Shown here: in pieces, positions 2,521 to 51,911 of the stretch | Layout of the letters: each line of letters starts with the position of its first letter | How positions within the stretch are numbered: the first letter of the stretch is position 1 | Assembly: GCA_963708135.1 (NCBI GenBank) | Contig: OY970192.1 | Coordinates: 3,680,001-3,744,000 of the forward strand | DNA from: an uncultured Gemmatimonadales bacterium | GTDB taxonomy: Bacteria; Gemmatimonadota; Gemmatimonadetes; Longimicrobiales; RSA9 | Direction of reading: 5' to 3' | Length of the DNA: 64,000 bases | Notes under the pieces: model-generated | Seen by the model: only the letters and a program-made list of their open reading frames with translations | The model's database searches: none | Told to the model about the DNA's origin: nothing | Program-made: the position numbers and the translations under genes

Positions 2521-2617
2521 CTCCCGGCGCGGAGGATCGGGGAGCAGGTGCCGAGGGCAGACGAGGCCTCGAGGATAGCTGCGACGTGGACGGGCCCGCT
2601 CACGTGGAGTGGCGGCG

Positions 2618-2768
2618 GATCTTCCCCGCGCGCGGCGCTGTACCCGGCGCCGTCCATGTCTACGGGACCAGGGGCGGGGGATCTTCCCCGCGCGCTGCGC
2701 TGTACCCGGCACCGTCCATGTCTACGGCACCAGCGGCGGGGGATCTTCACCGCGCGCGGCGCTGTACC
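2618..2768. repeat. 62-bp tandem repeat, about 2.4 copies
   Basis: GATCTTCCCCGCGCGCGGCGCTGTACC... units start at 2618, 2680 and 2742. Confidence 0.85.
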
Positions 2769-2863
2769 AACGGCCTGACGTTGGGGCGGCGAGAGGCATC
2801 CCTGTCTCCCGCATGCGGGCCGCCAGCGGGGCGGCGAACGGAACCTCGGGAAAGAGAAGCGAG

Positions 2864-3553
2864 ATGCGGACGAAGTGGCAGATCCTCACGGCTGCGGCGC
2901 TGGTGGCGCCGCTCGCCGCGTGCGCGCCGAAGGCGACGGTGACTCCGCCGGACGGGGTGGATCTGAGCGGGACGTGGGTGCTGAACCGCGAGGCGAGCCG
3001 CCTCGGCGGGGAGGGTGGGAGCCAGGCGGTGCGGGGGGAGCGTGGCGAGCGCCCGGGCGGCGAAGGCGGCGAGGGCGGCGAGGGCGGCGAGGGAGGCGAG
3101 GGAGGTCGGGGCGGCAGGCGCGGCGGCGGCTGGGGGCGGGGCGGGGCTGAAGGCGGGCGGGGCGGGTACGGTCCGGGCGGCGGGATGGAGGGGATCCGCG
3201 AGGCAATGTCGTCGGCGCGGCCGTCGCCGCGGCTGGTGATCGTGCAGCGGGACTCTTCGGTCGAGGTGGACGCGCAGGACGACATCCCGCTCGACCTGGT
3301 GCCGGACGGCAGGACGCGGCCGGCGGCCGAGCGTCATGGGTCCGAGGTGAAGGAGCGGGATGTGAAGGCGCGCTGGAAGGACGGTGCGCTGGTAGTGGAG
3401 GAGTCGATGCCGGGCGGGCTGACGGTGGTGCGCCGCTACGAGCATCCGCGGGGATCGCCACGGCTGATCGTGGAGACGGAGGTGAAGGGGGCGCCGCGCG
3501 CCATGAAGCTCGTGTCCGCCTACGACGCGGCGCGGTCGAAGGCCGGCTCCTGA
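2864..3553 (+). CDS. Hypothetical lipoprotein with Gly/Glu/Arg low-complexity insert
   Basis: Lipobox MRTKWQILTAAALVAPLAAC; DLSGTWVLN; (GGE)n tract. Confidence 0.8.
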   Translation: MRTKWQILTAAALVAPLAACAPKATVTPPDGVDLSGTWVLNREASRLGGEGGSQAVRGERGERPGGEGGEGGEGGEGGEGGRGGRRGGGWGRGGAEGGRGGYGPGGGMEGIREAMSSARPSPRLVIVQRDSSVEVDAQDDIPLDLVPDGRTRPAAERHGSEVKERDVKARWKDGALVVEESMPGGLTVVRRYEHPRGSPRLIVETEVKGAPRAMKLVSAYDAARSKAGS

Positions 3554-3662
3554 GGGCGGCCTTGAGCCGACCGCCCGCCGCCGCGAGATTGGGGGGTGTC
3601 GATATCGTGAACGGACGGGGCCTCGCGACTGGCGTCGCGGTGCCCCCGCGGGGCGGTGAAGC

Positions 3663-4220
3663 ATGACGGCTCGGTCGAAGGACTGGATCATCCGTGCGGC
3701 GGGGCTCGCCGCGCTGCTGGCGGGAGTGGGCTTCGTGCTGCTCCGGCCGCCGCAGCTGCGTCCCGCGGCGTCGGGCGCGGCACGCGCACCGGCGTTCACG
3801 GCGCCGACGCTCCTCGGCGACACCGTCTCGCTGACGCAGTTTCGCGGCCGTGTGGTGGTGCTGAACTTCTGGGCCACGTGGTGCGGCCCGTGCAAGATGG
3901 AGATCCCCGCCCTGCAGCGCCTGTACCGGGAGATGGGGCCGCGCGGCCTCGCCGTGGTCGCGGTCAGCGAGGATGAGGACCCGCCCGGGAAGTCGCCGGT
4001 GAAGGACATCGGCAGCTTCGCGGTCACGCGGGGGATGACCTTCCCGATCCTGCTCGATCCCACCGGCCGCATCCAGGACCTGTACGGCGTGCGCGGGATC
4101 CCCACCACCTTCCTGCTCGACCGGGACGGCCGCGTCATCCGGCAGGTGATCGGCCCGGCCGCCTGGGACAGCCCGCCGTACAGCCAGCAGATCAGTCAGC
4201 TGCTGGCCGGCGGCCGCTGA
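3663..4220 (+). CDS. TlpA/ResA family thiol-disulfide reductase
   Basis: N-terminal TM; VLNFWATWCGPC; GIPTTFLLDRDG. Confidence 0.93.
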   Translation: MTARSKDWIIRAAGLAALLAGVGFVLLRPPQLRPAASGAARAPAFTAPTLLGDTVSLTQFRGRVVVLNFWATWCGPCKMEIPALQRLYREMGPRGLAVVAVSEDEDPPGKSPVKDIGSFAVTRGMTFPILLDPTGRIQDLYGVRGIPTTFLLDRDGRVIRQVIGPAAWDSPPYSQQISQLLAGGR

Positions 4221-4242
4221 TCGCCCCGGCGCGGGGGGGCCC

Positions 4243-5254
4243 TCAACGCTGCCGCCCCGCCTTCGTACGGTACGGCAGGTCCGCCGGTGGATCGCCGTTC
4301 GGCCAGTCGTTCACCTTCGGCGCGAAGTCCGGACGGGGGCGCGAGTCGAACGAAAGCCGCCACGTCCACGGCCTGCTGGTCGCTCAGCGTGCCCGGGTGG
4401 TCGAAGGGCATGTTCGCACGGATGAAGCCGGCCGCCGTGCGCGGCCGCGCCATGCCGGCGCCGATATTGAAGGAGCGCGGTCCCCAGAGCGGCGGCGCGA
4501 GCTCCGTCCCCTGTCCCTCCGGCCCGTGGCAGCGCGCGCACACGGTGGCGAACGTCCGCGCGCCGGCCGCCGTATCCGCCTCGAGCGCCGGAAGCTTCCG
4601 GAGCCCCTGCCCCTCGACCCGCGCGCCGACCGGCACCCCCGTCGAGAGCCACGCAATGTAGGAGACGATGTCCCTCATGGCGGGATCGTCCACCGCCAGC
4701 GCCTTTCCGCTCATGCTCCGCTGGAAGCACCCGTTGATCCGCTCCTCCAGCGTGATCACACGCGCGCCGCGGCTCCTGTACTGGGGAAACTGTCCGTAGA
4801 CGCCCGCCCACGGCGAGGACCACGCCCGCCGGCCCTCGTCCAGGTGGCAGCTCACGCACCGCAGCCCGTTCCCCACGTGGCCCGGCAGGCTGTCGCGCGT
4901 CGCCAGCAGGATCGCCCGGCCCCGCCGGATCGACGCCCCCAGCGGGCCGCCGGGAATCGCCGACAGCGGCGGCGGCCGGAGCGGCACCACCCCGGGCGCC
5001 GCCGCCGGCGCCGGGCTGCCCCCGGCGACCGCCCTCTCCCCACCGTCCGGCGCCGCAGCCGCGGCCGCCGCTCCGGCCGCGGAGTCGGAGGATACCCCGG
5101 TCCCGGCGGGCGCGGCGCGTCCGCACGCGGCGAGCAATGGAACGAGCATCGAGAGGAGGATCCCGCAGGCGGCGGGGCGGGCGCCACACGGGCGGAGGCC
5201 GGAGCCGCAGCGCCGGCCGGCCCGGCGAGGCCCGCTCGGAATGGATCGAGTCAT
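4243..5254 (-). CDS. tsdA: TsdA-like dihaem c-type cytochrome (thiosulfate dehydrogenase/tetrathionate reductase family), lipoprotein, +1 frameshift near 4350
   Basis: CVSCH and CARCH haem sites; RINGCFQRSM (Cys ligand), GAGMAR, ANMPF; plausible tail DSRPRPDFAPKVNDWPNGDPP lies in the next frame, stop at 4243; start uncertain (5254 or 5149). Confidence 0.75.
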
Positions 5255-5403
5255 CGGAAAGTCCCGGGGCTCGGTGGACGGGGGGAAACCGGGCGCCGCC
5301 CCGAGCACTCGTGCCCGCGGCGCGACGTGTCGCCCGGCCGCCGGCACCCAAGATCGATGCGTCGCGTTCGTCGGCGCAACCGTCGCCGCCGGAGGGGCTC
5401 CGC

Positions 5404-5453
5404 GTGCAATCTCCTGCACGGTCATGCAGTCGATTGCGTGCAGCCGGCTGCAC
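5404..5453. promoter_or_regulatory. Three TGCA-N6-TGC(A/G) palindromes, putative enhancer (UAS) sites
   Basis: GTGCAATCTCCTGCAC 5404-5419, ATGCAGTCGATTGCGT 5424-5439, GTGCAGCCGGCTGCAC 5438-5453; about 90-140 bp upstream of the predicted sigma54 start site. Confidence 0.6.
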
Positions 5454-5514
5454 GGTCGCTCTCGCAGGATCGGCGTAATGTGTTGGGGGAGAATGGATTC
5501 CAGGCGACGGCCGG

Positions 5515-5531
5515 CCGGCCCGCGGCTTGCC
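5515..5531 (+). promoter_or_regulatory. Putative sigma54 -24/-12 promoter of the Rieske operon
   Basis: CCGGCCCGCGGCTTGCC: GG 5517-18, 10 nt, GC 5529-30 preceded by TT. Confidence 0.6.
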
Positions 5532-5597
5532 CATGGTTCACGGCGTATTCGCGGCACTACTGGGGCCCGCGATGGGAAATGGGGCCAGGAGAGCAGG

Positions 5598-6080
5598 ATG
5601 GAGAAGGACACGGGCCGGGGTTCGTGCGAGAGATGTGGCGGGGTGACGCGCCGGGAGGCGCTGGCGGCCGCGGCGAAGGCGATGTTCGGGGTAACGGTGG
5701 TGGGCATCGCCCTTCCTGCGCTGGAGGGGTGCGGCGTGGGCAGCCTCACGGGGCTGGGCGGCGGGCCGACGGCGACGCAGTTCGACGTGACCCGGCTGAC
5801 GCAGGATGGTCAGGCGCTGGTGACGTCGGCGAACGGGCCGGACGGCGCGCCGGTGCTGATTGTCCGGGAGGCGGCGGACAGCTTCCTGGCGCTGTCGATG
5901 ATGTGCACGCATGCGGCGTGCATCGTCGGCGCGCCGAGGAGCGGGGTGCTTACGTGTCCCTGCCACGGCTCGCAGTACGACATGAAGGGGCAGGTGCTGC
6001 GCGGGCCGGCGTTCCGGCCGCTGGCGCGGTACTCGGTGACGTACAATGCGGCGACGAACATGGTGACGATCTCGGCGTGA
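5598..6080 (+). CDS. Tat-exported Rieske [2Fe-2S] protein, possibly lipoprotein
   Basis: TRREAL twin-arginine motif, LEGC; CTHAAC...CPCHGS. Confidence 0.88.
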   Translation: MEKDTGRGSCERCGGVTRREALAAAAKAMFGVTVVGIALPALEGCGVGSLTGLGGGPTATQFDVTRLTQDGQALVTSANGPDGAPVLIVREAADSFLALSMMCTHAACIVGAPRSGVLTCPCHGSQYDMKGQVLRGPAFRPLARYSVTYNAATNMVTISA

Positions 6081-6105
6081 GGCGGGCCGTGGAAGGGGGC
6101 TGTCA

Positions 6106-6909
6106 ATGGTAGGGGTGCTCGTGGCGGCGATGGTGCTGGCGGCTCCGGACACGGGCCGGGTGGCGCCGGTTGCGGGGCGGGTGGGGAGCGCGCCGGAGGC
6201 GGTGGTGGCGGCGGAGGCGGTGGACCGTGCGGCGCCGGCCGGGGAAGCGGCGTCGCCGGCGGCGCGAAACCTCGCGGCGCGGCCGGTGCCGCGCTTCGGG
6301 GCGACGGAATCGTGGCCGGCGCTGCTCACGGCGGGCGGGGCGGGCGACGCCGCGGCTGCGACGGCGCTGCCGGATGTGGGTCCGGCGCCGGCGGACACGC
6401 CGGTGACGAAGCGGAAGCGGCCGGTGCTGGTGGACTACTCGGACGCTTACTACACGCGGCTCAAGATCCACAAGATCGCGAGCTACGTGATGCTGCCGCT
6501 GTTCGGGCTCGAGTACTACTCGGGCACGCAGCTGTACAACAAGGGGCTGGCGGCGCCGCGGTGGGTGAGGGACGTGCATCGCCCGGTGGCCACGGCGATG
6601 GCGGGGCTGTTCTTGGTGAACACGGTGACGGGTGTGTGGAACCTATGGGAGGGGCGGAAGGATCCCGAGGCCCGCGGGTGGCGTACTGCACACGGGGTGC
6701 TGATGCTGCTGGCGGATGCGGGGTTCGTGGCGACGGGGCTGACGGCCCCGCACGAGCACCGGGAATCGGGCGTGTTCGGCCCGGGCTCCCCGCTGGAAGG
6801 AGAGGGCAGCCATGGCAACCCGCGGCTGCACAAGGAGATCGCGATTTCGTCAATGGGAGTGGCGATGGTGAGCTGGATCATGATGCTGCCGCCGTTCCGG
6901 AGGGATTGA
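6106..6909 (+). CDS. Membrane protein with four His-bearing TM helices (cytochrome b561-like candidate)
   Basis: Ala/Pro-rich N-terminus, then four hydrophobic segments each led by a His: KIHK, DVHR, TAHG, RLHK. Confidence 0.7.
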   Translation: MVGVLVAAMVLAAPDTGRVAPVAGRVGSAPEAVVAAEAVDRAAPAGEAASPAARNLAARPVPRFGATESWPALLTAGGAGDAAAATALPDVGPAPADTPVTKRKRPVLVDYSDAYYTRLKIHKIASYVMLPLFGLEYYSGTQLYNKGLAAPRWVRDVHRPVATAMAGLFLVNTVTGVWNLWEGRKDPEARGWRTAHGVLMLLADAGFVATGLTAPHEHRESGVFGPGSPLEGEGSHGNPRLHKEIAISSMGVAMVSWIMMLPPFRRD

Positions 6910-6913
6910 AGCA

Positions 6914-7411
6914 ATGCTGTTCTTGAACGCGCTGGCCACGACGCTGCGGCCGTGGTCGGACCTGTACAACGGAAGCGCGCTGGTGTCGGACGGGGTGACG
7001 TTCGCTCACCTGGGCGGGATGCTGGTCGCGGGCGGCTTCGCGGTGGCGGCGGACCGGACGGTACTCCGGTCGGGCCGGGCTCCCGAGGGGGACCGTTCGT
7101 TCGTGCTGCGGGAGCTCCGGGACGTGCACCGGCCGGTCCTCTGGGGGCTCGCTGTGGTGCTGCTCTCCGGCCTCGCGATGATGCTCTCGGACGTGCGGAC
7201 CTTCCTGCCCTCGTGGGTTTTCTGGGCGAAGATGGCCCTGATCGGGCTTCTGCTGCTGAACGGGCTGACGCTGGAGCGGGCGGAGCGGCGGCTGGCGGCG
7301 GACCCGCTGGAGCGGACCGCCTGGCGGCGGCTGCGGCGGGCGTCGCTGCGGAGTGGAGGGCTGTGGATTCTGACGGTGCTGTTCGGGGTGCTGCTGACGT
7401 CGGCCGGCTGA
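6914..7411 (+). CDS. Four-TM membrane protein (DUF2214/DUF6644-like)
   Basis: FAHLGGMLVAGG, SGLAMMLSD, FWAKMALIGLLLLNG; 4 nt after previous stop. Confidence 0.75.
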   Translation: MLFLNALATTLRPWSDLYNGSALVSDGVTFAHLGGMLVAGGFAVAADRTVLRSGRAPEGDRSFVLRELRDVHRPVLWGLAVVLLSGLAMMLSDVRTFLPSWVFWAKMALIGLLLLNGLTLERAERRLAADPLERTAWRRLRRASLRSGGLWILTVLFGVLLTSAG

Positions 7412-7474
7412 GGCGGCGGGGGTGCGGGCGCCGCCCGCGCGCCGCGTGAGAAGAGGACATGGACGAGCCGAGGG

Positions 7475-8026
7475 ATGGAGATGGATATGGCAGGGCAGGA
7501 ACAGGAGCTGGAGGCGTGCGCGTCGTGCGCGCTGGGGACCTCGCGGCGGGAATTCCTGAGGGACGCCGCGGTGGCGGCGGCGGTGCTGCTGGGGCTGGGG
7601 GCGAGGCGGGGGCAGGCGTCGGTGCTGCCGGGTCGGCTGGTGGCCACGGGCCGCTCGGGGGCGGGAACGGTGACGTATCCGCTGCCGGCCGGGGATGGCG
7701 TATCGATCGACCGCGAGCAGGAGATCATCGTGGCGCGGTGGCAGGGGAAGGTCTATGCCTTCTACCTCTCCTGCCCGCACCGCCACACGGCGCTCCACTG
7801 GATCCAGGGCGACAACCGGTTCGAGTGCCCGAAGCACCACTCGAAGTACCGGCCGGACGGGGAATACATCTCGGGGCGGGCGACGCGCAGCATGGACCGC
7901 TACGCCGTCCGGATCTCGGGGTCGCAGGTGATCGTGGACCCGGACCGGGCGTTCCGGCAGGACGAGGACCCGCAGGGCTGGAGCTCGGCCTACGCGGTGG
8001 TGCCTTCCGCGGGCGCATCCGGCTGA
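7475..8026 (+). CDS. Second Tat-exported Rieske [2Fe-2S] protein
   Basis: SRREFL; CPHRHT...CPKHHS; ATRSMDRY. Confidence 0.88.
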   Translation: MEMDMAGQEQELEACASCALGTSRREFLRDAAVAAAVLLGLGARRGQASVLPGRLVATGRSGAGTVTYPLPAGDGVSIDREQEIIVARWQGKVYAFYLSCPHRHTALHWIQGDNRFECPKHHSKYRPDGEYISGRATRSMDRYAVRISGSQVIVDPDRAFRQDEDPQGWSSAYAVVPSAGASG

Positions 8027-9393
8027 TCGTCGCCGCCGATCCCGAGCTTCTCGAGCTTGTACCAGAGGGTGCGGACGCTCACGCCGAGGATCCGCGCCGC
8101 CTGCGTCTTGTTGTCGCCCGTCGCCTGGAGCGCGGCCAGGATGGCGCTCCGCTCCGCGCGCTCGACGGCCTCGCGTAGCGGGGGTGGCGGGCCGGTCTGC
8201 GCGCCTGCGACGCTCGGCCGTACGGCGCTACCGTCCGCCTCCGGGAGGTCGAAATGACGGAGCATGCCGTTGCGCGCGAGCAGCACGGCACGCTCGACCA
8301 CGTTGTTGAGCTCCCGCACGTTGCCCGGCCAGGTGTACGCCTCGAGCTGGGCGACGGCCTCCGGCGCGAGGCGCACGTCGCGGCCGAGCGAACGGCCGAG
8401 GCGCTCGGCGGCGTGCAGCGCGAGCGGGGCCACGTCCTGGACGCGCTCGCGGAGCGGCGGGACGTGGACGGGGAAGACGTTCAGGCGATAGAACAGGTCG
8501 GCGCGGAATCGGCCCTCCGCCACGAGCGCGGCCAGATCGCGGTGCGTCGCGGCGACAATGCGCACGTCCACGCGCCGCACCACGTTGGAGCCGAGCCGCT
8601 CGAGCGTGCCTTCCTGGAGCACCCGCAGCAGCTTCGGCTGGAGCGAGGGCGGCATGTCCCCGATCTCGTCGAGGAACAGCGTGCCGCCGTCCGCCAGCTC
8701 GAACTTCCCCGCCCGCTCCTGCACCGCGCCGGTGAACGCGCCCCGGCTCACGCCGAACAGCTCCGCCTCCAGCAGCTCGCCGGGGATCGCCGCGCAGTTG
8801 AGGGCGACGAAGAGCGCCTCCGCGCGCGGCGAGCGGGCGTGCACTGCGCGCGCGACCAGCTCCTTGCCCACGCCCGTCTCCCCGGTCACCAGCACGGTCG
8901 TGGGCGCCGGCGCGACGCGGTCCACCGAGGAAAGCACCGTCCGCATGGCCGCGCTGGCGGCCACGATCCCCTCGGGGCCCGGCTGGACCTCGCGCAGATA
9001 GGCGTTCTCCCGCTCCGCCCGCGCCGCGCCGAGCGCGCGCGAGACGAGCGCCTCGATCTCCTCGACCGCGAAGGGCTTCACCACGTAGTCGAAGGCGCCC
9101 AGCTTGATGGCGCGCACGGCGCTCTCGACCGTGCCGTAGGCCGTGATCAGGATGACCGGCAGCTCGGCGCGGGTGCCGCGGATGCGCTCGAGGAGCTCGA
9201 TGCCGGAGCGGTCGGGGAGCTGAAGGTCGGTGAGCACGAGGTCCACCGGCTCCGCCTCGAGGACGCGCTCCGCGTCCGCGGCGGTACCGGCGCACAGCAC
9301 GCGGTAGCCCAGGTCGCTGAGCGAGAGCTCGAGGATCCGGCGGATCCTCGCCTCGTCGTCCACCACGAGGAGCGTGGGAATGCTGGGGCTCAT
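7990..9393 (-). CDS. Sigma54-dependent response regulator (NtrC/AtoC family)
   Basis: Receiver domain, GETGVGKE, GAFTGA, FLDEIG, WPGNVREL, Fis-type HTH. Confidence 0.96.
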   Translation of the reverse strand: MSPSIPTLLVVDDEARIRRILELSLSDLGYRVLCAGTAADAERVLEAEPVDLVLTDLQLPDRSGIELLERIRGTRAELPVILITAYGTVESAVRAIKLGAFDYVVKPFAVEEIEALVSRALGAARAERENAYLREVQPGPEGIVAASAAMRTVLSSVDRVAPAPTTVLVTGETGVGKELVARAVHARSPRAEALFVALNCAAIPGELLEAELFGVSRGAFTGAVQERAGKFELADGGTLFLDEIGDMPPSLQPKLLRVLQEGTLERLGSNVVRRVDVRIVAATHRDLAALVAEGRFRADLFYRLNVFPVHVPPLRERVQDVAPLALHAAERLGRSLGRDVRLAPEAVAQLEAYTWPGNVRELNNVVERAVLLARNGMLRHFDLPEADGSAVRPSVAGAQTGPPPPLREAVERAERSAILAALQATGDNKTQAARILGVSVRTLWYKLEKLGIGGDDQPDAPAEGTTA

Positions 9394-11084
9394 GCGTCTC
9401 TCCCGGACGGAATTCGAACGGTGGCGGTGGTGCCGGCGCCCGGCTCGCTCTCAAGGGCGACCTCGCCGCCGTGGGCCTCGACGATGCGCCGTACGATCGG
9501 CAGCCCGAGGCCGGTCCCTCCGCCGCCCGTGGTGAAGAACGGCGTCCACACCTCGGCCAGCTCCTCGGCCGGGATGCCGCGGCCGTGGTCGCGCACCTCG
9601 AGCACGGCGTACGAGCTTTCTGCGCGCGTGCCGACCTCGACGGGCTGGCCGGGCGCGGAGGCCTTTCGCGCGTTGGCCAGCAGGTTCAGCGTGACCTGGT
9701 AGAGCTGATCGGCGTCGCCCTCGAGGGGCGCCGCCTCGAGGGCGGCCTCGAGTGGCACGCCGGCCGCCTCGTACTCGCCGGCCATGGCGGTCGTGACCTG
9801 GCGGACGACATCGGCCAGATCGAGCGGGATGCGGCGGGGCGGGCGCGGCCGGGCGAAGGCGAGCAGATCGTTCACGAGCCGGCCCAGACGCGAGACCTCG
9901 CCGAGGATGAACGTGGTCAGCTCCTCCTCGCGCGAGCCGCCCGGCGCGGCGCGGGCCAGCATCTCGGCGGAGCCGCGCACGATGGAGAGCGGCGTGCGGA
10001 TCTCATGGGCCAGGGCGGCGGCCATCATGCCCATGGCGGCGAGGCTCTCCTGCCTGGAGAGCTCACGGCGCGAGGCGTCCAGGCGCGCCACCATCGTCTC
10101 GAGCGCGTCCGAGAGCACCCTGACCTCACGCGGGGCGGCGCTGCTCACCCGGTCGAAGTCGGGGCGGATGTCGAGCCGCACGTCGCGGGCGGTGTCGGTG
10201 AGTCGGCGCAGCTCGCGCGTGGTCGAGCGGGCGAAGAGGAGCGAGGCCGGCAGCGTCACGGCGAGGAAGACGAGCGCGAGGGTCAGCAGCTGGCGTCCGG
10301 TGTCGCGGAGCGGGCTCAACGCCTGGGACTCGGGCACCATCATCTCGGCCTGGAGGCGGAGTCCGCCCAGGTCGCGCATCGGGCGGCGGGCGGTGAGCGC
10401 GTGGGGATCCGCCGGCGGGTCCTGGCCGGCGACGATCCGGCCGTCCGCGGCGCGGATGGCCAGCCCGGCGCGGTCGTCGGGCGCCGCCTCCGCGAGCAGC
10501 TCGGACCAGGGGGTGAGGAGCGCGAGCCAGCCGAGCCGCTCGCCGCGCGGGCCGAACACCGGGCTCGCGGCCAGGACGCCGCCCTCGCCCGGGCCGCCGC
10601 GCAGGTAGAGGCGCGCGTCCGCTCCGCTGGTGCGGCGGAGCAGCGGGAGCCAGCCTTCGCCGAGCGTGCTGCGGCCGATCCAGGCGGGGTCGGAGGAGGC
10701 GACGACGCGGCCGCCGGGCTCCACGGCGAGCGCGAGATCGCGGCCGCGGAAGCTGCCGGCGAGCTGGGCGAGCGAGGCGGCCAGCCGCTTGTCAACATCG
10801 TCGACCGCGATGTCCTGCGCGGCGCCGAGGCCGGGCCAGACCTCAACGAGCCGGAGCCGGTCGCCGAGGGCGCGCTCGAGGCGGTCGCCGACGAGGCGGT
10901 CGCGGGCCTCGAGGCGCTGGGCGGCCTCGCGGAGCAGGGCGTCGCGGCCGCGGACGTACTCGATGGCGAGCACGGCCCCGGTGGCGAGGAGCACGAAAAG
11001 GGCGAGAGCGGAGGCCAGACGCCCCGCGAGGGTATCGGGCCAGCGTCTAGCGCGGCGCCGCGGCCGCCGCTCATCATCAGGCAA
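9390..11084 (-). CDS. Sensor histidine kinase (periplasmic domain, HAMP, HisKA, HATPase)
   Basis: Two TMs, LAHEIRTPL, GTGLGL; 4-nt overlap with regulator; start uncertain (TTG 11084). Confidence 0.9.
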   Translation of the reverse strand: MPDDERRPRRRARRWPDTLAGRLASALALFVLLATGAVLAIEYVRGRDALLREAAQRLEARDRLVGDRLERALGDRLRLVEVWPGLGAAQDIAVDDVDKRLAASLAQLAGSFRGRDLALAVEPGGRVVASSDPAWIGRSTLGEGWLPLLRRTSGADARLYLRGGPGEGGVLAASPVFGPRGERLGWLALLTPWSELLAEAAPDDRAGLAIRAADGRIVAGQDPPADPHALTARRPMRDLGGLRLQAEMMVPESQALSPLRDTGRQLLTLALVFLAVTLPASLLFARSTTRELRRLTDTARDVRLDIRPDFDRVSSAAPREVRVLSDALETMVARLDASRRELSRQESLAAMGMMAAALAHEIRTPLSIVRGSAEMLARAAPGGSREEELTTFILGEVSRLGRLVNDLLAFARPRPPRRIPLDLADVVRQVTTAMAGEYEAAGVPLEAALEAAPLEGDADQLYQVTLNLLANARKASAPGQPVEVGTRAESSYAVLEVRDHGRGIPAEELAEVWTPFFTTGGGGTGLGLPIVRRIVEAHGGEVALESEPGAGTTATVRIPSGRDA

Positions 11085-11106
11085 ATCTGAACCCCGGAAC
11101 CTGGGA

Positions 11107-12237
11107 ATGGAAGCGAGAAAACGGCCGCTCCCCGTGCGGTGGAGCAGGGCCATCCCGCTGGCGCTCGCGCTGGGCTGGACGGCGCCGCTTGCGGCGCAGC
11201 TGCCGGCCCCGGCGGTGAGCAGCCCGGATGCCATACACCTCGGCGGCTACGGAAGTGTCGTGCTGGGGCGGAGCCTGGGCGCCGCGCCGACGCCGCGCAC
11301 CGGCATCGATGCGGCCACCGCGGCCGCGCTCATCTCGGGCACGCTCCTGCCCCGCCTCAGCTACTTCGGCGACTTCGAGGCGGCGAGCTTCACGGAGGAG
11401 AACTGGACGGGTCGCCGCGAGGAGCGTCGCACGGAGATCGCGCGCCTGTACGCGGAGTACGCCTTCACCGATGCGTTCCGGCTGCGCCTCGGCCGCTTCC
11501 TCACACCGGTCGGCCAGTGGAACGAGATCTTCGCCGAGCCGCTGACCTGGACGGTGCTGCGTCCGCTCACGACCTACCGCCCGTTCGCGAAGAGCACGAC
11601 CGGCATTCTCGCGGCCGGCAGCGTCCCCGTGGCGGGCCACGACGCTGGCTACGCCGTCTACTTCTCGCCCGTCGGCTGGAGCCGCGAGGAAGGGCAGGAG
11701 ACGGGCTTCGCGCGGGCGCTCGGCGGGCGCGCGGCGGTCGAGCTCTTCCCGGGGCTCGTCGTCGGCGCCAGCGCCGCGGAGTTCCGCGTCTCGCGGCCAT
11801 ACGAGCCCAACGACCCGGAGTACGACCACCGGAACGCGCCTCCGGGCTCCACGCCGCCGGACTCCGTTGACGGGCCGGCGGAGGAGATGCGCGAGGCGGA
11901 AGACGACGCGCGCCGGCTCGTGGGCGGCGACGTCGCCTGGAACCTGGGGCGCGTCGAGCTGCTCTCCGAGGCTGTGGCGCTCTCCGGGACGACGCTGCGG
12001 CCGGCGGAGCACGGCGCCTTCGTGCAGGCCGCGGTGCGCGTGATCGATCCGCTCCACCTGGTGCTGCGCACGGAGGTCTACGACCCGGTGTACCAGTCCA
12101 CCGTGCACGTACAGACCCTCGGCGCGACGCTCCGCCTCCAGCGCCACTGGACGCTCAAGCTGGAGCGTCAGATCACCGACCACGCATCCGAGCGGGTCCG
12201 CGACGGATGGTTCGTCTCGGCATCGGCGCTCTTCTGA
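11107..12237 (+). CDS. Outer-membrane beta-barrel / porin-like protein
   Basis: Signal peptide; RLYAEY, LRLGRFLTPVGQWN; amphipathic strands; C-terminal Phe. Confidence 0.75.
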   Translation: MEARKRPLPVRWSRAIPLALALGWTAPLAAQLPAPAVSSPDAIHLGGYGSVVLGRSLGAAPTPRTGIDAATAAALISGTLLPRLSYFGDFEAASFTEENWTGRREERRTEIARLYAEYAFTDAFRLRLGRFLTPVGQWNEIFAEPLTWTVLRPLTTYRPFAKSTTGILAAGSVPVAGHDAGYAVYFSPVGWSREEGQETGFARALGGRAAVELFPGLVVGASAAEFRVSRPYEPNDPEYDHRNAPPGSTPPDSVDGPAEEMREAEDDARRLVGGDVAWNLGRVELLSEAVALSGTTLRPAEHGAFVQAAVRVIDPLHLVLRTEVYDPVYQSTVHVQTLGATLRLQRHWTLKLERQITDHASERVRDGWFVSASALF

Positions 12238-12668
12238 TCGCCGCGCTCGCCGCCCCGCCCGTCCGCGGGCAGGGCCGCGAGCGCGCGCCGGCACCCCTCG
12301 CGGTGATCGTGCACGAGGACGTCCCCGGCACGACCCTCGACGCCGCCACCGTGCGCCGCATCTTCCTGCGCCGCCAGCGCTTCTGGGAGGACGGCACGCT
12401 CGTGGCGCCCGTAAACCTGCCCGCCACCTCCCCCGTCCGCGACTCCTTCTCCCGCGCCATCCTCGGCCGCGCGCCCCGCGACATGGCCGAGTTCTGGAAC
12501 GACCTCTACTTCCACGGCATCCAGCCGCCGCCCGTGCTCGACAGCGAGCGCGCCGTCCTGCTCTACGTGGCGCGCACCCCCGGCGCGATCGGCTACGTGG
12601 CCGCGGACGCGCTGCCCGACCCGGACGATCGCACCGGATATCGGGTGGCGCTGGTCGTGCGACGGTGA
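12207..12668 (+). CDS. Small periplasmic binding protein (PstS/PBP2-like single domain)
   Basis: Signal peptide; LAVIVH, VRRIFL, VARTPGAIGYV. Confidence 0.8.
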   Translation: MVRLGIGALLIAALAAPPVRGQGRERAPAPLAVIVHEDVPGTTLDAATVRRIFLRRQRFWEDGTLVAPVNLPATSPVRDSFSRAILGRAPRDMAEFWNDLYFHGIQPPPVLDSERAVLLYVARTPGAIGYVAADALPDPDDRTGYRVALVVRR

Positions 12669-12704
12669 GGCCCGCCGGGGCTTTCCCGGCCCTCTCGCCA
12701 CCCC

Positions 12705-12880
12705 GAGTGGGAGAGTGGGAGAGTGGGTGACCGGGCGACGCGCGCGGGAACCTCGGGTCGCCGGGCCAGGCCGACTTCGCGGCGGCGCAGCTTCGCCGGG
12801 CCAGGCCGGCTTCGCGAAGCCTCTCGGGCCGCGGACACTCGGCCGCCGCGAACACCACCCACTCCCCCACTCCGCCACTC
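12705..12880 (+). repeat. GAGTGGGA-ended repeat element, copy 1 (short)
   Basis: Left GAGTGGGAGAGTGGGAGAGTGGGTGACCGGGCGACG; right CCCACTCCCCCACTCCGCCACTC. Confidence 0.8.
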
Positions 12881-12931
12881 AGCTGGAATTCCCCCTCGCC
12901 CTTCCCCGCCCGCGCGCCTAGCTTTCTCGGC

Positions 12932-13768
12932 ATGATCGAGCTCGCCACGCACACGGCCACGCGCTACGTCCAGCCGCTCCGCGAGGGGGGGTCGCTGCCG
13001 GCCGTGGTGGACACGGAGGGCGGCGGGCTGTTCGTTGCCAAGTTCCGGGGCGCGGGCCAGGGGGCGAAGGCGCTCGTGGCGGAGCTGATCGTGGGGTTGG
13101 TGGCGCAGGCGCTCGAGCTGCCGGTGCCGGAGCTCGCGCTGGTCGAGGTGCCGCCGTCGTTCGGGCGGAGCGAGCCGGATCCGGAGATCCAGGACCTGCT
13201 GCGGATGAGCCACGGCACCAACCTCGGGGTGCGCTACCTGGATGGCGCGTTCAACTTCGACGCGCACGCGGCGCTCGAGCTGGTGCCGGCGCGGCTGGCG
13301 GCGGAGACGGTCTGGCTGGACGCGTACCTGACCAACCCGGATCGCACGCACCGGAACCCGAACCTGCTCATCTGGCGGCGGCGGCCATGGCTCATCGACC
13401 ATGGCGCCGCGCTGTACGCGCACCACGACTGGAGCACGGTGGACGAGGCGCGCACGCGGACGCCGTTCCCGCTGATCCGCGAGCACATGCTGCTGACGCA
13501 CGCGGACGACATCGAGGCGGCGGATGCGCGGCTCGCGCCGCTGCTGACGGAGGAGCTGCTCGGGGACGTGCTCGCGGCGGTGCCGGACACGCTGCTGCTG
13601 GATCCGGTCGCCCGCGCCGGCTTCGCATCGGGGGAGGAAGCGCGCGCGCGCTACCACGCCTACCTGCGTTCGCGCCTCGAGGCGCCGCGGGCGTTCCTCG
13701 CGGAAGCGGTTCGCGCGCGCGAGGCCCGCCTCGCGGAGCCGCCGCGCATGCTGAGGGCGCGCCGATGA
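12932..13768 (+). CDS. HipA-like Ser/Thr kinase
   Basis: LREGGSLP, KFRGAGQG, AELI, NPDRTHRNPNLL, LIDHG kinase-like motifs. Confidence 0.85.
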   Translation: MIELATHTATRYVQPLREGGSLPAVVDTEGGGLFVAKFRGAGQGAKALVAELIVGLVAQALELPVPELALVEVPPSFGRSEPDPEIQDLLRMSHGTNLGVRYLDGAFNFDAHAALELVPARLAAETVWLDAYLTNPDRTHRNPNLLIWRRRPWLIDHGAALYAHHDWSTVDEARTRTPFPLIREHMLLTHADDIEAADARLAPLLTEELLGDVLAAVPDTLLLDPVARAGFASGEEARARYHAYLRSRLEAPRAFLAEAVRAREARLAEPPRMLRARR

Positions 13769-14163
13769 GCGCGCCGGGCCGCGTCGCCTACACGTTCGCG
13801 GTGCTGCGGGCCGTGCCGCACGTGTACGCGGGCAGCTTCGTCAACGTGGGGGTCGTGGTGCACGCGCGCACGGCGGAGTACCTGGGGATGCGTGCCCTGA
13901 CGGATCCGGAGGCGCTGCGCGCGCGCGTGCCCGACGCGGACGTGCCGCTGCTCGCGCGCTACCTGCGCTCGTGCGAGGCGGTGTGCGCCGGGGACGCGGC
14001 GGCGGGCCCCGTGGCCCTGCGGCCGTCGTCGGAGCGGTTCCACTGGCTGACCGCGCCGCGCTCGGACGTGCTGCAGGCCTCGCCGGTGCACGAGGGGGTG
14101 TGCGCGGACCCGGCCGTGGCGCTGGGGGAGCTGTTCGAGGAGCTTGTGCTTGTCGGGAGGTGA
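13765..14163 (+). CDS. DUF3037-like protein
   Basis: ATGA overlap with kinase; YTFAVLRAVP, FVNVGVVV, RFHWLTAPRS. Confidence 0.85.
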   Translation: MSAPGRVAYTFAVLRAVPHVYAGSFVNVGVVVHARTAEYLGMRALTDPEALRARVPDADVPLLARYLRSCEAVCAGDAAAGPVALRPSSERFHWLTAPRSDVLQASPVHEGVCADPAVALGELFEELVLVGR

Positions 14164-19409: not shown

Positions 19410-21071
19410 CTACCGCCGGGCCAGCCGGAGGTCGTGCACGCCGCGGTCGGTGATGGCGATCGCGGTCACGCGGCCGGCGGCGTCGCGCAGGAAGCGCAGC
19501 GCGGGCAGGTCGTCGCTCGTGAACGCATCGCGGAAGAGCGGCTCGAGGGGCAGGTCGTCGCCCCGCCAGGAGTGCAGGTAGAGCCGGCCGCCGCGCGCGG
19601 CGACGTCCCACGTTACCGGGACGCCCGGCACCAGCTCGAGCTCCGGGCTGGCGTAGCTGCCGGCGTACTCCTCCAGCCGGGCGCCGACGTCGGGCGGCGG
19701 GGGCGCCACACGCTCGAAGGACTCGGGCGGGTAGAGCGGGCGCGTGGTCCCGGCGCCCGCGGCGTCGAAGGTCCAGGTGGTGCCGCTCTCGTCATCGCGG
19801 AAGCGCCCGCCACCGAGCCAGGTGAGCGCGACCGCCGCCTTTCCGCTCCCGCGGACGAGCGTGCCGTCGCGGACCTCAAAGCGCACGGGGTAGCCCTGGT
19901 CGCGGCTGACGTAGAGCCCGGCCCAGCGCTCCGGGTGCGCGGATCCAGGCGCGGCGCTGGCGCGGGGCGGCTCCGCCGCGGCGCCCAGGAACACGTCGGC
20001 CACGCCGTCGGCCAGCCGTTCCGTGCGCGCATCCGCGGCGTTGCAGAGCGTGATCACGGAGAGCCGCTCATCGGGGAAGCGCATGAGCATGGCGCGGAAC
20101 CCCTCCCACGCGCCGCCGTGCTGCACCCGCCGATGGCCGTGGTACTCATCGATGAAGAGCCCCATGCCGTAGGCCAGCGGGGTGCCGTCGTTCAGGTGCG
20201 CGCGCGTCTGGAGCAGCTCGGGCAGCCGTGCGCCGCCGACCTTCGGGTCGTGGAACTCGGCGTCCCAGCGGGCGAGGTCCTCGACGGTGGTCTGGACCGC
20301 GCCGTCGCCGACCTGCTCCCAGTCGGAGAGCTCGACGCGCCAGCCGCCGCTGTCCGCCGGGGTGTAGGCGGAGGCCTTGCGCGGCACGATCGTCCGCGTG
20401 TCGTCCAGGTAGCGGGTGTCCCTCATCCCGAGCGGCTCGAAGATCCGCTCGCGCGCGAACTCCCGGAGCGTCTTCCCCGACGCGCGGCGCACCACCTCGC
20501 CGGCCAGGAAGAAGCCGGTGTTGCTGTACCGCCAGCTGGTGCCGGGCGCGAAGTTCAATGCCGTCTGGCGGGTCAGCGGCTCGAGCGCCTCGCGGGCGGT
20601 GGTGTGGTCGCGCTCGTCCCATCCGGCCAGGACCATGAGGTCGATGTAGTCGCGCCAGCCGCTCGTGTGGGTGAGCAGGTGCCGCAGCGTGACGGTGGCG
20701 CCGAGGTCGGGCAGCTCGGGGATGAAGCGGCGCACATCGTCGTCCAGCGAGAGCTTGCCGTCCTCCTGCAGCAGCACCACGCTCGCGGCCGTGAACTGCT
20801 TGGAGGTGGAGCCGATGTCGAAGACCGTGCGCGGCGTGATCGGCACGCCGAGCTCGATGGAGGCGTAGCCGTAGCCCTTCTCGTAGAGGGAGCGCCCGTC
20901 GCGAACGACCTCGAGCGCGCAGCCCGGCGAGGCGGAATCGGGGCGGGTGAAGCGCGCGAAGACGGCGTCGATCCGCGCCGCACTGTCGGCGCCGAGCGTG
21001 CCCGGGCCCTGGGCGGCCGCGGGCGAGGCGGACAGGAGCGCCGCCGCGAGAAGGGCCGTGAGCCCCCTCAC
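19410..21071 (-). CDS. Secreted serine hydrolase, beta-lactamase-like, with C-terminal domains
   Basis: GSTSKQF, LLTHTSG, YSNTG, HGG. Confidence 0.9.
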   Translation of the reverse strand: MRGLTALLAAALLSASPAAAQGPGTLGADSAARIDAVFARFTRPDSASPGCALEVVRDGRSLYEKGYGYASIELGVPITPRTVFDIGSTSKQFTAASVVLLQEDGKLSLDDDVRRFIPELPDLGATVTLRHLLTHTSGWRDYIDLMVLAGWDERDHTTAREALEPLTRQTALNFAPGTSWRYSNTGFFLAGEVVRRASGKTLREFARERIFEPLGMRDTRYLDDTRTIVPRKASAYTPADSGGWRVELSDWEQVGDGAVQTTVEDLARWDAEFHDPKVGGARLPELLQTRAHLNDGTPLAYGMGLFIDEYHGHRRVQHGGAWEGFRAMLMRFPDERLSVITLCNAADARTERLADGVADVFLGAAAEPPRASAAPGSAHPERWAGLYVSRDQGYPVRFEVRDGTLVRGSGKAAVALTWLGGGRFRDDESGTTWTFDAAGAGTTRPLYPPESFERVAPPPPDVGARLEEYAGSYASPELELVPGVPVTWDVAARGGRLYLHSWRGDDLPLEPLFRDAFTSDDLPALRFLRDAAGRVTAIAITDRGVHDLRLARR

Positions 21072-25629: not shown

Positions 25630-26994
25630 TCAGCCGAGGCCGTACTTCTCGAGGCGGTAGCGGAGCGTGTCGCGCGAGAGGCCGAGCAGCCTCGCGGCGC
25701 TGGTCTTGTTGCCGCCGGCGCGCTCGAGGGCCTGGCAGATCAGCTCGCGCTCGAGATCGTCGAGGCTCACGCCGGCGGCGGGCAGCACGAACGCGTGGCC
25801 GCTCGGGGTGGAGGAGCCGAGGATCTCCGGCGGGAGCTGCTCCAGCTGCACGGTGCCGTCGTCCTCGAGGAGCGCGATGCGTTCGAGGACGTTGCGAAGC
25901 TGCCGACCGTTGCCGGGCCACGGGTAGGCCTCGAGGGCCGCCATGGCGGGCGGCGAGATCGCGCGTGGTGGCTGGCGCATCTCGCGGCAGAGGATCTCGA
26001 GGAAGTGCGCGGCGAGGGGAGCGATGTCCTCCGGGCGCTCGCGCAGCGGCGGCAGCTCGATGCTGACCACGTTGAGGCGGTAGTAGAGGTCCTCCCTGAA
26101 GTCGCCCCTGGAGACCGCCGTCTCGAGATCGCGGTTGGTGGCGGCGATGACCTGCACGTCCACCTCGGTGTCGCGCACGCCGCCGACGCGCCGGAAGGAA
26201 TGGCTCTCGAGGAAGCCGAGCAGCTTGGCCTGCGCGGCGCGCGGCATGTCGCCGATCTCGTCGAGGAAGATGGTGCCGTTGTCGGCCAGCTCGAAGAGCC
26301 CCTTCTTGGGCTCGCGCGCGTCGGTGAAGGCGCCCGCCTCGTGGCCGAACAGCTCACTCTCGACCAGCATCTCGGGCAGCGCCGTGCAGTTGACGGCAAG
26401 GAAGGGGCGGCCGTGGCGCGGCCCGCGGGCGTGGATGGCGTGGGCGACGACGTCCTTCCCCGTCCCGCTCTCGCCGCGGATCAGCACGTTGGTCGGCGTG
26501 CCCCTGAGCGCGAGCCGAAGGACGAGCTCGGCGGTCTTCTTCATGGCGAAGGAGCGGCCGACGAGCGTGACGTCGGAGAACTGCCAGCGGTAGCCCTCGC
26601 GGTACTGCTCGAGCTCGTGGTGCAGGCGCCGTGTCTCGAGGGCCTGCTCGATCAGCAGGAGCAGCGCCGGCAGCTGGATCGGCTTCTCCAGGAAGTGGTG
26701 CGCGCCGGCCCGCACGGCGGCGACGGCGGTCTCCACCTCGCCGTAGGCCGTGATCATGATGACGGGAAGGCCGGCGTCGCGCTGCCTGATCCGGCCGAGC
26801 AGCTCGATGCCAGAGGCGTCCGGCAGGCGCAGGTCGAGCAGCACGAGGTCGGCAGGCGCGCGCTCGAGCGCCGCGACCAGCTCGGCGCCGTCGGCCACCG
26901 CCTCCGCCTCGTAGCCCACCTCGGCCAGGTGCTCCTGTAGCCAGAGCCGAATCAGCAGCTCGTCGTCGCAGATCAGGATGCGTTCCCGCGCCAT
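25630..26994 (-). CDS. Sigma54-dependent response regulator (AtoC/ZraR-like)
   Basis: Receiver domain, GESGTGKD, GAFTDA, FLDEIG, HTH. Confidence 0.95.
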   Translation of the reverse strand: MARERILICDDELLIRLWLQEHLAEVGYEAEAVADGAELVAALERAPADLVLLDLRLPDASGIELLGRIRQRDAGLPVIMITAYGEVETAVAAVRAGAHHFLEKPIQLPALLLLIEQALETRRLHHELEQYREGYRWQFSDVTLVGRSFAMKKTAELVLRLALRGTPTNVLIRGESGTGKDVVAHAIHARGPRHGRPFLAVNCTALPEMLVESELFGHEAGAFTDAREPKKGLFELADNGTIFLDEIGDMPRAAQAKLLGFLESHSFRRVGGVRDTEVDVQVIAATNRDLETAVSRGDFREDLYYRLNVVSIELPPLRERPEDIAPLAAHFLEILCREMRQPPRAISPPAMAALEAYPWPGNGRQLRNVLERIALLEDDGTVQLEQLPPEILGSSTPSGHAFVLPAAGVSLDDLERELICQALERAGGNKTSAARLLGLSRDTLRYRLEKYGLG

Positions 26995-28847: not shown

Positions 28848-29102
28848 TGCCCTTCCTCGACCCCTCGCCCGCAGCCCGCGGCGACTCCGCGGCCCACCGG
28901 ACGACGCTGCCCCGGAATATAGCGCGCGGACGGGCAAGACCGCCCGCCTCTCGTGGGGGCCACCCCTCCGGCGGGAGCGGGGCTTTTCCCCCTGCGTCCC
29001 GCGCCCGATCGGGGCAAATGGCCCACCCGGCGTCTCCCGACGGATGGGGTGGTGCAGCGCGCAGGTCGTTGCCTGCCAAGCCGTTGCGGCGGATGAACGG
29101 CG

Positions 29103-29119
29103 CCGGCTCGGGGCTTGCC
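29103..29119 (+). promoter_or_regulatory. Possible sigma54 -24/-12 promoter
   Basis: CCGGCTCGGGGCTTGCC: GG 29105-06, 10 nt, GC 29117-18; divergent from a sigma54 two-component system. Confidence 0.45.
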
Positions 29120-29485
29120 TTGAATGAAGCAACCGCCACCGGCACCCGCACCCGGCGGCGGTCTCCGGCCGGCATGCTGGAGACCGCCTTCATCGCCGGG
29201 CACCGGGAGTGCCGGGGCGAGCATACCGCCGGATCGACTTCAGCGCCTGGCCGGCCGCTCCTCCGGGAGCGCCGGAGCATCTCTTCGGCAGCGAGGCCCC
29301 GCCTGATTCGGGGCGGGCTTTCAGTCATACATATCGGGATTCCGAGCTGGGCTCCAGGCATACGGGCGGCCGTCCGCAGGTGGCGGTCGCGCCATACGCG
29401 CGGATTCGGATCCCCTCGCTCCGCCCACGCCGCGCCGCCGGCCTCCGCCGGGGCTCCGGCACGGGCCAAGGCCGTGGAGGCTGCC

Positions 29486-38781: not shown

Positions 38782-38874
38782 GGCACGCGGAGCGAGGTGC
38801 CGGGACGGACAATGCGGTTGCCTGGATACGCTCCTGTATCCATCTTGCGGCGCACCCTACCCCACGAGGAACCC

Positions 38875-40860: not shown

Positions 40861-41093
40861 GCTTGCCTCCTCGTCTGCCAGGGTGGGCCGCAGCGCAGCG
40901 GCCCGATCGCTCCTGGATGAACCGTAACTGCAAGAACCGGGCGGAGATGCGCGACGGGCAGCATGGCCCGAGCGCAAGCCGGCCAGCGCGCGGCCCGAAC
41001 CCTGCGCACATGCCTGGATCCGACGACGAGCGGGAGCGCGCACGGCGGTTCCAGCGTCGCCTCCCGCCAGGTCCATCCACGAGAGGAGCGCCC

Positions 41094-49100: not shown

Positions 49101-49112
49101 GGGTCCGCGCTT

Positions 49113-49733: not shown

Positions 49734-49766
49734 CGGGGTGGTCCTTTCCCCGGCCCGCCGGCCGGC

Positions 49767-51893: not shown

Positions 51894-51911
51894 GCCTCCC
51901 GCCCTCCGCTC

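Follow-up and report, generated by a model that had tools for sequence, protein, structure and literature searches.

In the window analysed here, a 64,000-nucleotide (nt) stretch of contig OY970192.1 (assembly GCA_963708135.1) from an uncultured Gemmatimonadales bacterium, the interval 3663-12668 carries a four-gene operon encoding a Rieske protein (Rieske-1), a membrane protein with four conserved His residues on four helices (P4), a protein with four transmembrane (TM) helices (P5) and a second Rieske protein (Rieske-2). By following this gene set through related genomes, we found it to be conserved, real and uncharacterised, a combination of Rieske proteins with a putative cytochrome b, and we give an even chance to the reading that the operon is transcribed by sigma-54 and encodes a small membrane electron-transfer module of Gemmatimonadota and some Vicinamibacteria. 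The arrangement is not due to chance, since most of 80 related loci combine the P4, P5 and Rieske genes. A preliminary description of the interval, made from its letters by a model, had proposed a quinol - haem b - Rieske - cytochrome c wire that perhaps serves thiosulfate or tetrathionate turnover; a quinol - haem b - Rieske wire can reasonably be read from the sequences, and the proposed sulfur role is weighed below against the neighbourhoods of the related loci.

Gene choice in this region of about 74% G+C, where raw lists of open reading frames (ORFs) are crowded with shadow frames, was based on third-position G+C together with Pfam and NCBIfam matches. All genes of the preliminary description were recovered from ORFs, Pfam and NCBIfam where it had placed them, with two corrections to its gene list: the long ORFs 5241-6080 and 4196-5749 are over-extended, their likely starts being 5598 and 5254, and a porin-like and a PstS-like gene, which it had left unnamed, are present as well. 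The operon comprises the genes of Rieske-1 (5598-6080, + strand), P4 (6106-6909, +), P5 (6914-7411, +) and Rieske-2 (7475-8026, +), which are separated by intergenic gaps of 25, 4 and 63 nt, respectively. As had been claimed, no domains of PetB-type cytochrome b, cytochrome c1, molybdoenzymes or oxygenases were found in 3663-12668 by Pfam and NCBIfam. Rfam gave no match in 3000-13000, and scans for sigma-70 promoters and terminators found no more than chance would give.

Scanning a collection with one genome per species detected P4 relatives at 389 loci, of which the best 80 were studied (numbered L001 onwards); judged by record title, 72 of these belong to Gemmatimonadota, including Longimicrobiales, six to Acidobacteriota/Vicinamibacteria and two are unclassified. 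Gene presence was determined by tblastn with the window proteins, with only those loci that reach far enough counted in each denominator. On this count, 69 of 74 loci have the Rieske-2 type (type A), 63 of 76 have P5 and 43 of 70 a further Rieske gene, which upholds the earlier view of the Rieske, four-His and four-TM genes as a conserved unit. ORF clustering of 81 loci found P4 in 79, a Rieske protein in 78 (119 copies) and P5 in 66. With A, B and C denoting the three Rieske types described below, the architectures were P4-P5-A-B (30/81 loci), P4-P5-A (19/81), the window form C-P4-P5-A (6/81), P4-A (6/81), P4-P5-A-P4 (5/81), P4-B (4/81) and P4-B-P5-A (2/81), the remaining loci having incomplete gene calls. 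Gene order is variable across the loci and the gene set is stable. Since the 13 of 76 loci without P5 retain P4 and a Rieske protein, these two form the constant pair and P5 is a frequent third member. Beyond subclades, no further gene family was common to the 81 clustered loci, and the other recurrent neighbours were subclade-specific housekeeping genes (fatty-acid oxidation, ABC-F, PaaX and MacB-like).

P4 relatives numbered 1745 at E <= 0.001 among 2042 candidates, and an exhaustive profile search of 1.84 billion representatives returned 790 clusters (50% identity), 634 of them at E <= 1e-10. Nearly all of the best 120 relatives listed are nameless or annotated as 'hypothetical', those with a taxon being Gemmatimonadota, and the best 150 clusters all range from 174 to 343 amino acids (aa) in length. 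The search for longer forms yielded one protein, P0121 (480 aa), in which an anti-sigma-like N-terminal part (HxxxCxxC) precedes the P4 domain, with a clear signal peptide between the two parts; it is probably an ORF read-through. The sole P4-P5 fusion is P0053 (368 aa), which has a Trp where the window has a stop codon. A second, diverged P4 copy (37-46% identity) follows the type A gene in L025, L040, L047, L059 and L061, about 1.4-2.0 kb downstream of the first P4, and an NtrC-like gene (38-46% identity) lies at about +3.7 kb in the first four of these, the L061 locus ending earlier.

Residues H122, H158, H196 and H242 of P4 are invariant in a set of 30 and in a larger set of 110 sequences, and in the P4 model they fall on four consecutive helices, the arrangement by which four-helix dihaem cytochromes b are recognised. 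The other invariant features comprise Gly residues in three helices, several Arg residues ahead of helices and in loops, the motifs NTVTGxWN and ADAGF, and two Met residues, with Met200, Asp204 and Met260 standing beside the His residues. An AlphaFold2 model of the P4 core consists of four helices (predicted local distance difference test, pLDDT, 88.3); because each His lies 3-7 residues from its helix start in the model, one His pair is predicted at each membrane face. Weak family matches of the 110 members gathered on families of haem-b membrane proteins, namely DUF4079 (105 members, best 2.2e-6), the prokaryotic cytochrome b561 family Ni_hydr_CYTB (42), DUF420 (32) and PepSY_TM (4), with P4 scores for DUF4079 of 19.1-21.3 bits against a cut-off of 31.4, and off-target matches including Na_H_antiport_1 (29/110). 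Because of the four invariant His residues and these sub-threshold profile matches, P4 is best regarded as a putative dihaem cytochrome b that probably binds haem b.

In P5, residues H32, D47, H72, D93, K106 and N116 are invariant among 59 sequences, its AlphaFold2 model has a pLDDT of 95.3, and the positive-inside pattern of its lysine and arginine (K+R) residues is clearly N-out/C-out. The 59 members weakly matched DUF2214 (45 members, best 2.8e-7), DUF6644 (32), HemJ/UPF0093 (24) and CopD (12, best 4.3e-5); the window P5, a CopD-like protein of the DUF2214/DUF6644 kind, scores above no family cut-off (DUF2214 14.8 bits against 34.1), and the Atlas label of its cluster is 'Copper resistance D domain'. 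H32, G35, G40 and G41 are invariant or nearly so, and H32, followed by this Gly-rich stretch, may be the counterpart of the CopD/HemJ His as judged by reading, not by alignment. Foldseek against the PDB returned generic helical bundles for the P5 model (E >= 0.63), the P5 profile met nothing meaningful among solved-structure sequences, and a search for longer, fused P5 forms found none, which is weak evidence. P4 and P5 were also compared as possible paralogues and rejected as such (hhalign 5.7%).

Both window Rieske proteins score above the PF00355 cut-off of 20.3 bits (Rieske-1 47.4, Rieske-2 38.1) and contain the CxH...CxxH boxes; with a TRREAL motif in Rieske-1 and a TAT_signal match of 17.8 bits against 16.7 in Rieske-2, the operon does encode two Rieske proteins with signals for twin-arginine translocation (Tat), as first described. 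Three kinds were distinguished by their cluster boxes. Type C (Rieske-1; 6 sequences) has the boxes CTHxxC...CPCHGS, the complete signature of bc-type proteins and a Cys in a lipobox-like setting. It precedes P4 in just 6 of 81 loci, namely the window, L001-L003, L043 and L067; in the window protein the boxes read CTHAAC...CPCHGSQY and the possible lipobox LEGC. Type A (Rieske-2; 73 sequences including the window) has the boxes CPHQNTA...CPKH[HK]SKY, which in the window read CPHRHTA...CPKHHSKY, and lacks the bc-type disulfide cysteines. Residues C51, H53, C69, H72, S74 and Y76 are invariant in 70 type A sequences. The type retains the Ser and the Tyr that give bc1 Rieske proteins a higher potential. 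Its AxA signal looks cleavable, which makes it a probable soluble protein of the periplasm. Type B (40 sequences), usually encoded downstream of type A, has the boxes C[PT]HxGT...CPNHGAxF and, in most members, a canonical lipobox in addition to a twin-arginine motif; the latter was detected in 38 of the 40 type B and 70 of the 73 type A sequences. Judged by box character, types A and C are high-potential-like and type B low-potential-like, which would suit a downhill relay that starts at quinol as well as a redox loop of the Hya/Fdn kind that ends in quinone. Among solved structures, Rieske-2 is closest to the Rieske domains of Rieske/cytochrome b complexes (9rk3_A, 1.1e-10; b6f), followed by the arsenite oxidase small subunits AioB/AroB (4.3e-7).

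The signal peptides of both window Rieske proteins have a Cys pair just before the twin-arginine motif (CERC...TRREAL, 5622-5666; CASC...SRREFL, 7511-7558). When the 73 type A sequences were counted by eye, 52 had CxxC and 17 C-x1/x3-C within 22 residues of the arginine pair, one had no Cys pair and three had no detectable twin-arginine motif; many type B signals have C-x3-C before the arginines. To our knowledge no role has been described for a Cys pair ahead of a Tat motif. It could act as a metal ligand or a pre-export checkpoint. In the excerpt available, PMC5449189 deals with other Sec/Tat proteins, not with this module.

A sigma-54-type -24/-12 element, CGGCCC-N5-TTGC, is located at 5516-5530 (+), 67 nt ahead of the Rieske-1 start codon. 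It differs from TGGCAC-N5-TTGC at two positions and keeps the GG and GC, and because the sigma-54 pattern is not enriched across the window (29 matches versus 49.6 expected), this site alone is unconvincing. The related loci were then compared for TGGCAC-N5-TTGC, with the GG and GC dinucleotides obligatory, between 36 kb upstream of P4 genes and the remaining 2.18 Mb, counted on both strands: 11 perfect and eight one-mismatch sites were found in the former, versus no perfect and 27 one-mismatch sites in the latter. Ten of the 11 perfect sites end 28-36 nt ahead of the start codon; the eleventh belongs to an over-extended ORF call. The perfect sites all come from one subclade and the one-mismatch sites from several others, and the window's own GGCCC-N5-TTGC variant occurs at the equivalent place in L001, L007, L031, L042, L066 and L078. 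This enrichment supports sigma-54 dependence of the P4 operon, which had been proposed from the window by itself. Upstream of the promoter, the inverted repeats GCAATCTCCTGCA/TGCAGTCGATTGC and the palindrome CGTGCAGCCGGCTGCACG at 5403-5454 could form an activator-binding site; by eye, GCAAT..ATTGC repeats upstream of the operon in L001-L003 resemble them.

An NtrC-type sigma-54 activator gene (7990-9393, -; Sigma54_activat 3.6e-70 with AAA+ and GAFTGA, Response_reg 2.3e-28, HTH_8 1.1e-12) and a sensor histidine kinase gene (9390-11234, -; HAMP, HisKA and HATPase_c, with a periplasmic domain that matched no family) adjoin the operon, as the preliminary description had it, but on the opposite strand, the activator gene converging on Rieske-2 and not continuing the operon. 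Divergent from the kinase gene are those of a porin-like outer-membrane protein (11107-12237, +) and of a small secreted 153-aa protein (12207-12668, +), whose match to the PstS family (E 1.3e-3) is far below cut-off. With NtrC counted as present only at an identity of at least 54% and in matching position and strand, it stands in the window's position in 14 of 65 loci, the kinase in 13 of 58, the porin-like gene in 13 of 55 and the PstS-like gene in 13 of 54. Across 14 loci, the sigma-54 motif was found ahead of the porin-like gene in none; on the kinase strand, the window and L002 alone have it, there within coding sequence. Because no motif precedes the porin-like gene, the P4 operon is the nearest sigma-54 target where the NtrC pair adjoins. 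The window copy of the porin-like protein has no Pfam match, while its relatives weakly match Porin_O_P, a family of phosphate-selective porins (L007, 22.5 bits versus 20.9; 3 of 10 at E<=0.05), and four of 11 PstS-like relatives weakly match PBP_like_2. The PstS-like protein is a candidate periplasmic ligand sensor. At the kinase start, the listed ORF runs more than 100 nt into the beginning of the divergent porin-like gene (11085-11234), so that one of these two starts is uncertain and the kinase gene probably begins downstream of 11234; with a TTG near 11085, the two start codons would stand only about 20 nt apart.

We propose the following mechanism. The P4 core would most likely hold two b-type haems by means of the invariant His at each helix start; it is always accompanied by at least one Tat-exported Rieske [2Fe-2S] protein, and most loci also encode a CopD-like P5 and a second, lipoprotein Rieske. 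P4, in a physical complex with P5, would move electrons between the quinone pool and the Rieske carriers of the periplasm, either across the membrane or along it. At the periplasmic face, the soluble type A protein would dock and exchange electrons with the lipid-anchored one, the flow running in either direction, and P5 would be an accessory subunit that provides, for example, a quinone or cofactor site. In the window clade, where porin-like and PstS-like proteins accompany it, the adjacent NtrC-type two-component system would be the acting activator and would probably switch the operon on upon a periplasmic solute.

Beyond oxygenases and arsenite oxidase, Rieske proteins are the textbook partners of PetB-type cytochrome b, and this pairing serves to trace the history of chemiosmotic energy conversion. 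Like the bc1 and b6f complexes, the module combines a Tat-exported Rieske protein with a four-TM putative dihaem protein and a further small membrane protein, reminiscent of cytochrome b6 and subunit IV in b6f, and Rieske-1 has the bc-type CTHxxC/CPCHGSxY boxes. The module differs in that no PetB/Cytochrome_B homology was found in 3663-12668 or among the 110 P4 and 59 P5 relatives; P4 has one His per helix, whereas cytochrome b of bc1/b6f has two on helix B and two on helix D. Neither a cytochrome c1, an f nor a dihaem c subunit is part of it, the four operon products containing no CxxCH and the 80 loci no conserved cluster of CxxCH-bearing ORFs. Further, its Rieske proteins look soluble or lipid-anchored, unlike the helix-anchored ones of bc1/b6f, and two or three different Rieske genes stand in one operon. 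Because it has neither a PetB-type cytochrome b nor c1/f, the module is, by its sequence, not a bc1/b6f member.

A second likeness is to the four-helix dihaem cytochromes b. P4 shares four TM helices and four His with the Ni_hydr_CYTB group (HyaC, FdnI, CybB) and with b561/DUF4079, and we take DUF4079, DUF420 and Ni_hydr_CYTB to belong to one Pfam clan. Cytochromes of the HyaC/FdnI type partner a periplasmic iron-sulfur protein, as P4 would a Rieske protein, according to the redox-loop logic of hydrogenase and formate dehydrogenase. The differences are that the P4 scores are all sub-cut-off with no structural match, and that the partner is a Rieske protein and not a ferredoxin-type dehydrogenase subunit. 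Taking both likenesses together, it is possible, though in our judgement doubtful, that P4, P5 and the Rieske proteins represent a second, non-homologous solution to the Rieske/cytochrome b pairing: a PetB-independent, sigma-54-controlled quinol:Rieske or Rieske:quinone oxidoreductase, in which the b561-like P4 and CopD-like P5 would stand in for cytochrome b6 and subunit IV and feed into a chain of Rieske proteins, some soluble and others lipid-anchored.

Several points weigh against an electron-transfer module built on a dihaem P4. P4 is below every Pfam and NCBIfam cut-off, Foldseek against the PDB matched its model with generic helix bundles only (best E 0.36), its profile met only the designed dihaem protein 4D2 among solved-structure sequences (E 0.011), and its hhalign comparison with Escherichia coli CybB was negative (probability 0.2%). 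By a helix-register estimate from the model, the two His levels are 20-31 Å apart, the upper end of which would be long for direct haem-to-haem transfer. The signal-like N-terminus of P4 and the P4-P5 fusion favour an N-out topology, contrary to its K+R counts, which favour N-in/C-in (9.3 vs 4.7). The nearest families of P5 are copper-handling or HemJ-like and not quinone-binding. No terminal donor or acceptor gene is conserved across the loci, and the NtrC pair adjoins the operon in only the 14 of 65 noted above. The sample is limited to the 80 loci most similar among the 389, and their ORFs came from a crude, composition-based caller. As to 4D2, a de novo design, its repeats of a loop and a His-bearing helix align with the P4 hairpin at profile positions 95-127 (the helix 1-2 loop and the first part of helix 2), His on His; the resemblance is convergent and does not amount to homology.

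The family matches of P4 and P5 point in part to another explanation, which we consider unlikely: handling of copper or iron, with P5 as a CopD-like importer, P4 as a CtaM/DUF420-like or b561/Dcytb-like reductase or exporter, and the Rieske proteins either giving electrons for Cu(II)/Fe(III) reduction at the membrane or being clients. The conserved His in the first helix of the CopD-like P5, which may correspond to that of CopD/YcnJ, and the DUF2214, DUF6644 and CopD matches of the P5 members, together with the Atlas label, suit this explanation, as do the DUF420 (CtaM family) matches of 32 of the 110 P4 members and the invariant Met200, Asp204 and Met260 beside the P4 His residues. Nevertheless, every one of these family matches is sub-cut-off; no CopC, YtkA or Sco domains, multicopper oxidase, P-type ATPase or oxidase genes are conserved near the module; and the loci without P5 keep P4 and a Rieske protein. 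We know of no association of the CopD or CtaM families with Rieske proteins, nor of a role of Rieske proteins in copper trafficking, which counts against it as well. On the copper-handling side, PMC13344008 proposes, in the part available, copper import by the CopD domain via a conserved His and a role for CtaM (DUF420) in copper export or reduction in Bacillus subtilis. Far less probable still is that the Rieske proteins and P4/P5 inform the kinase of an oxyanion or of the redox state of the periplasm and carry no respiratory flux. The kinase/NtrC, porin-like and PstS-like genes beside the module in 13-14 of about 55-65 loci and the Cys pairs conserved in the Rieske signal peptides speak for such sensing, but no regulator adjoins the module in 51 of 65 loci, the operon stands outside the regulator operon as a sigma-54 target in its own right, and several Rieske paralogues per operon suit electron transfer better.

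The sulfur role of the preliminary description, in which a dedicated quinol - haem b - Rieske wire serves TsdA in thiosulfate oxidation or tetrathionate reduction with help from TlpA, depends on the genes upstream of the operon. The product of 4196-5254 (-) was correctly recognised there as TsdA-like: it is a dihaem cytochrome c with two CxxCH motifs, its SoxA/TsdA domain scores 50.9 bits against a cut-off of 27, and 220 of its residues align at E 1.4e-60 with solved chains of Allochromatium vinosum thiosulfate dehydrogenase. The alignment keeps both CxxCH motifs and the column of the Cys ligand of the first haem, which is His/Cys-ligated in TsdA. By these sequence marks it is a genuine TsdA homologue. 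It differs from solved TsdA in a lipoprotein-type N-terminus and in an Asn, followed by a conserved Met, in the Lys208 column, the best-matching solved chain being a variant with Asn at that column. The tsdA gene is transcribed divergently from the operon across a 343-nt spacer, and converges with a 25-nt overlap on the gene of a TlpA/ResA-like periplasmic thiol:disulfide oxidoreductase (3663-4220, +; AhpC-TSA 1.1e-29, Redoxin 2.2e-25, WATWCGPC; ResA subfamily 109.6 bits, below the cut-off of 170).

The neighbourhood check gave a divided answer: P4, P5 and the Rieske genes co-occur widely, as had been expected, whereas a TsdA-like gene within 8 kb of the module and a TlpA gene near it were each found in none of the 80 loci, one weak TsdA match lying at +8.1 kb in L008, and with this the claimed linkage of TsdA and TlpA to the operon, hence the thiosulfate/tetrathionate role, is left unsupported. 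TsdA is missing even in the closest relatives L001-L003, and in L001 and L002 a PadR regulator occupies its position. A TsdA-serving wire is improbable on these counts, and tlpA is merely convergent on tsdA; in its favour are a genuine and divergently transcribed TsdA, the full high-potential bc-type signature of Rieske-1, and a CCP_MauG gene in the same divergent slot of L003, which hints that such enzymes are sometimes served. TsdA and TlpA look like unrelated neighbours. A c-type cytochrome accompanies the module in three places only, the window, L003 and L074, which makes it slightly possible that the module has periplasmic dihaem enzymes among its occasional clients. The L003 gene (5645-6928, -) encodes a CCP_MauG dihaem peroxidase (1.1e-25) and lies divergently upstream of a Rieske-first operon, as tsdA does in the window, and in L074 the gene of a small CxxCH lipoprotein (cytochrome c) lies directly upstream of P4 on the same strand.

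For the regulatory side of the electron-transfer reading, the closest known layout is that of arsenite oxidase, whose aioBA operon is sigma-54 dependent. The window likewise has a binding-protein-like gene, a kinase and a sigma-54 activator beside an operon led by a Tat-exported Rieske protein, and Rieske-2 resembles AioB/AroB, as given above. It differs in having no AioA molybdoenzyme in the interval or among the conserved neighbours, and the counterpart of AioX is a 153-aa protein with a weak PstS-type match. According to the available part of PMC7565993, AioXSR, that is, a periplasmic binding protein, a sensor kinase and an activator, controls the aioBA operon.

In the literature, no paper was found on the module, on P4 or P5, or on the function of DUF4079, DUF6644, DUF6992 or DUF2214. 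No solved structure significantly resembles P4 or P5, and neither falls into a curated family above cut-off, which agrees with the claim of an undescribed system. If the electron-transfer reading is true, a Rieske protein with an unrelated four-His membrane protein would be a new building plan for membrane electron transfer, spread over the 389 places with P4 relatives, and two families without a known function would acquire a role. The Gemmatimonadota, abundant soil bacteria of poorly understood physiology, would gain a testable, regulated respiratory branch, of which the regulation is directly testable owing to the clear -24/-12 promoters.

Elsewhere in the window, a second NtrC-type activator (46% identical to the first) and a kinase are encoded at 25630-28847 (-), divergent from the gene of a familyless 365-aa protein (29069-30166), which on comparison proved unrelated to the porin-like protein; sigma-54-like motifs lie at 29104 and 29198. 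The 314-aa ORF at 2609-3553 (+) has a lipoprotein-like start and Gly/Glu/Arg low-complexity sequence (GEGGEGG...RGGRRGGG) and matches no family. A PadR regulator gene, the start of an ADOP/MacB-type permease gene, three serine beta-lactamase-family genes and a complete kdpABC with kdpD (1-1012, 1017-2657, 19410-21071, 38845-40287 and 46392-53669) are without bearing on the module. At 12932-14163, a HipA_2-like kinase gene (5.5e-14) and a DUF3037 gene (5.7e-33) overlap by 4 nt and may form a two-gene unit. At 40291-41570, a YceI-like gene (7.4e-56) stands beside two short ORFs, the second of which matches only the C-terminal part of AhpC/TSA (profile 45-123) and may be a split or frameshifted thioredoxin-fold gene.

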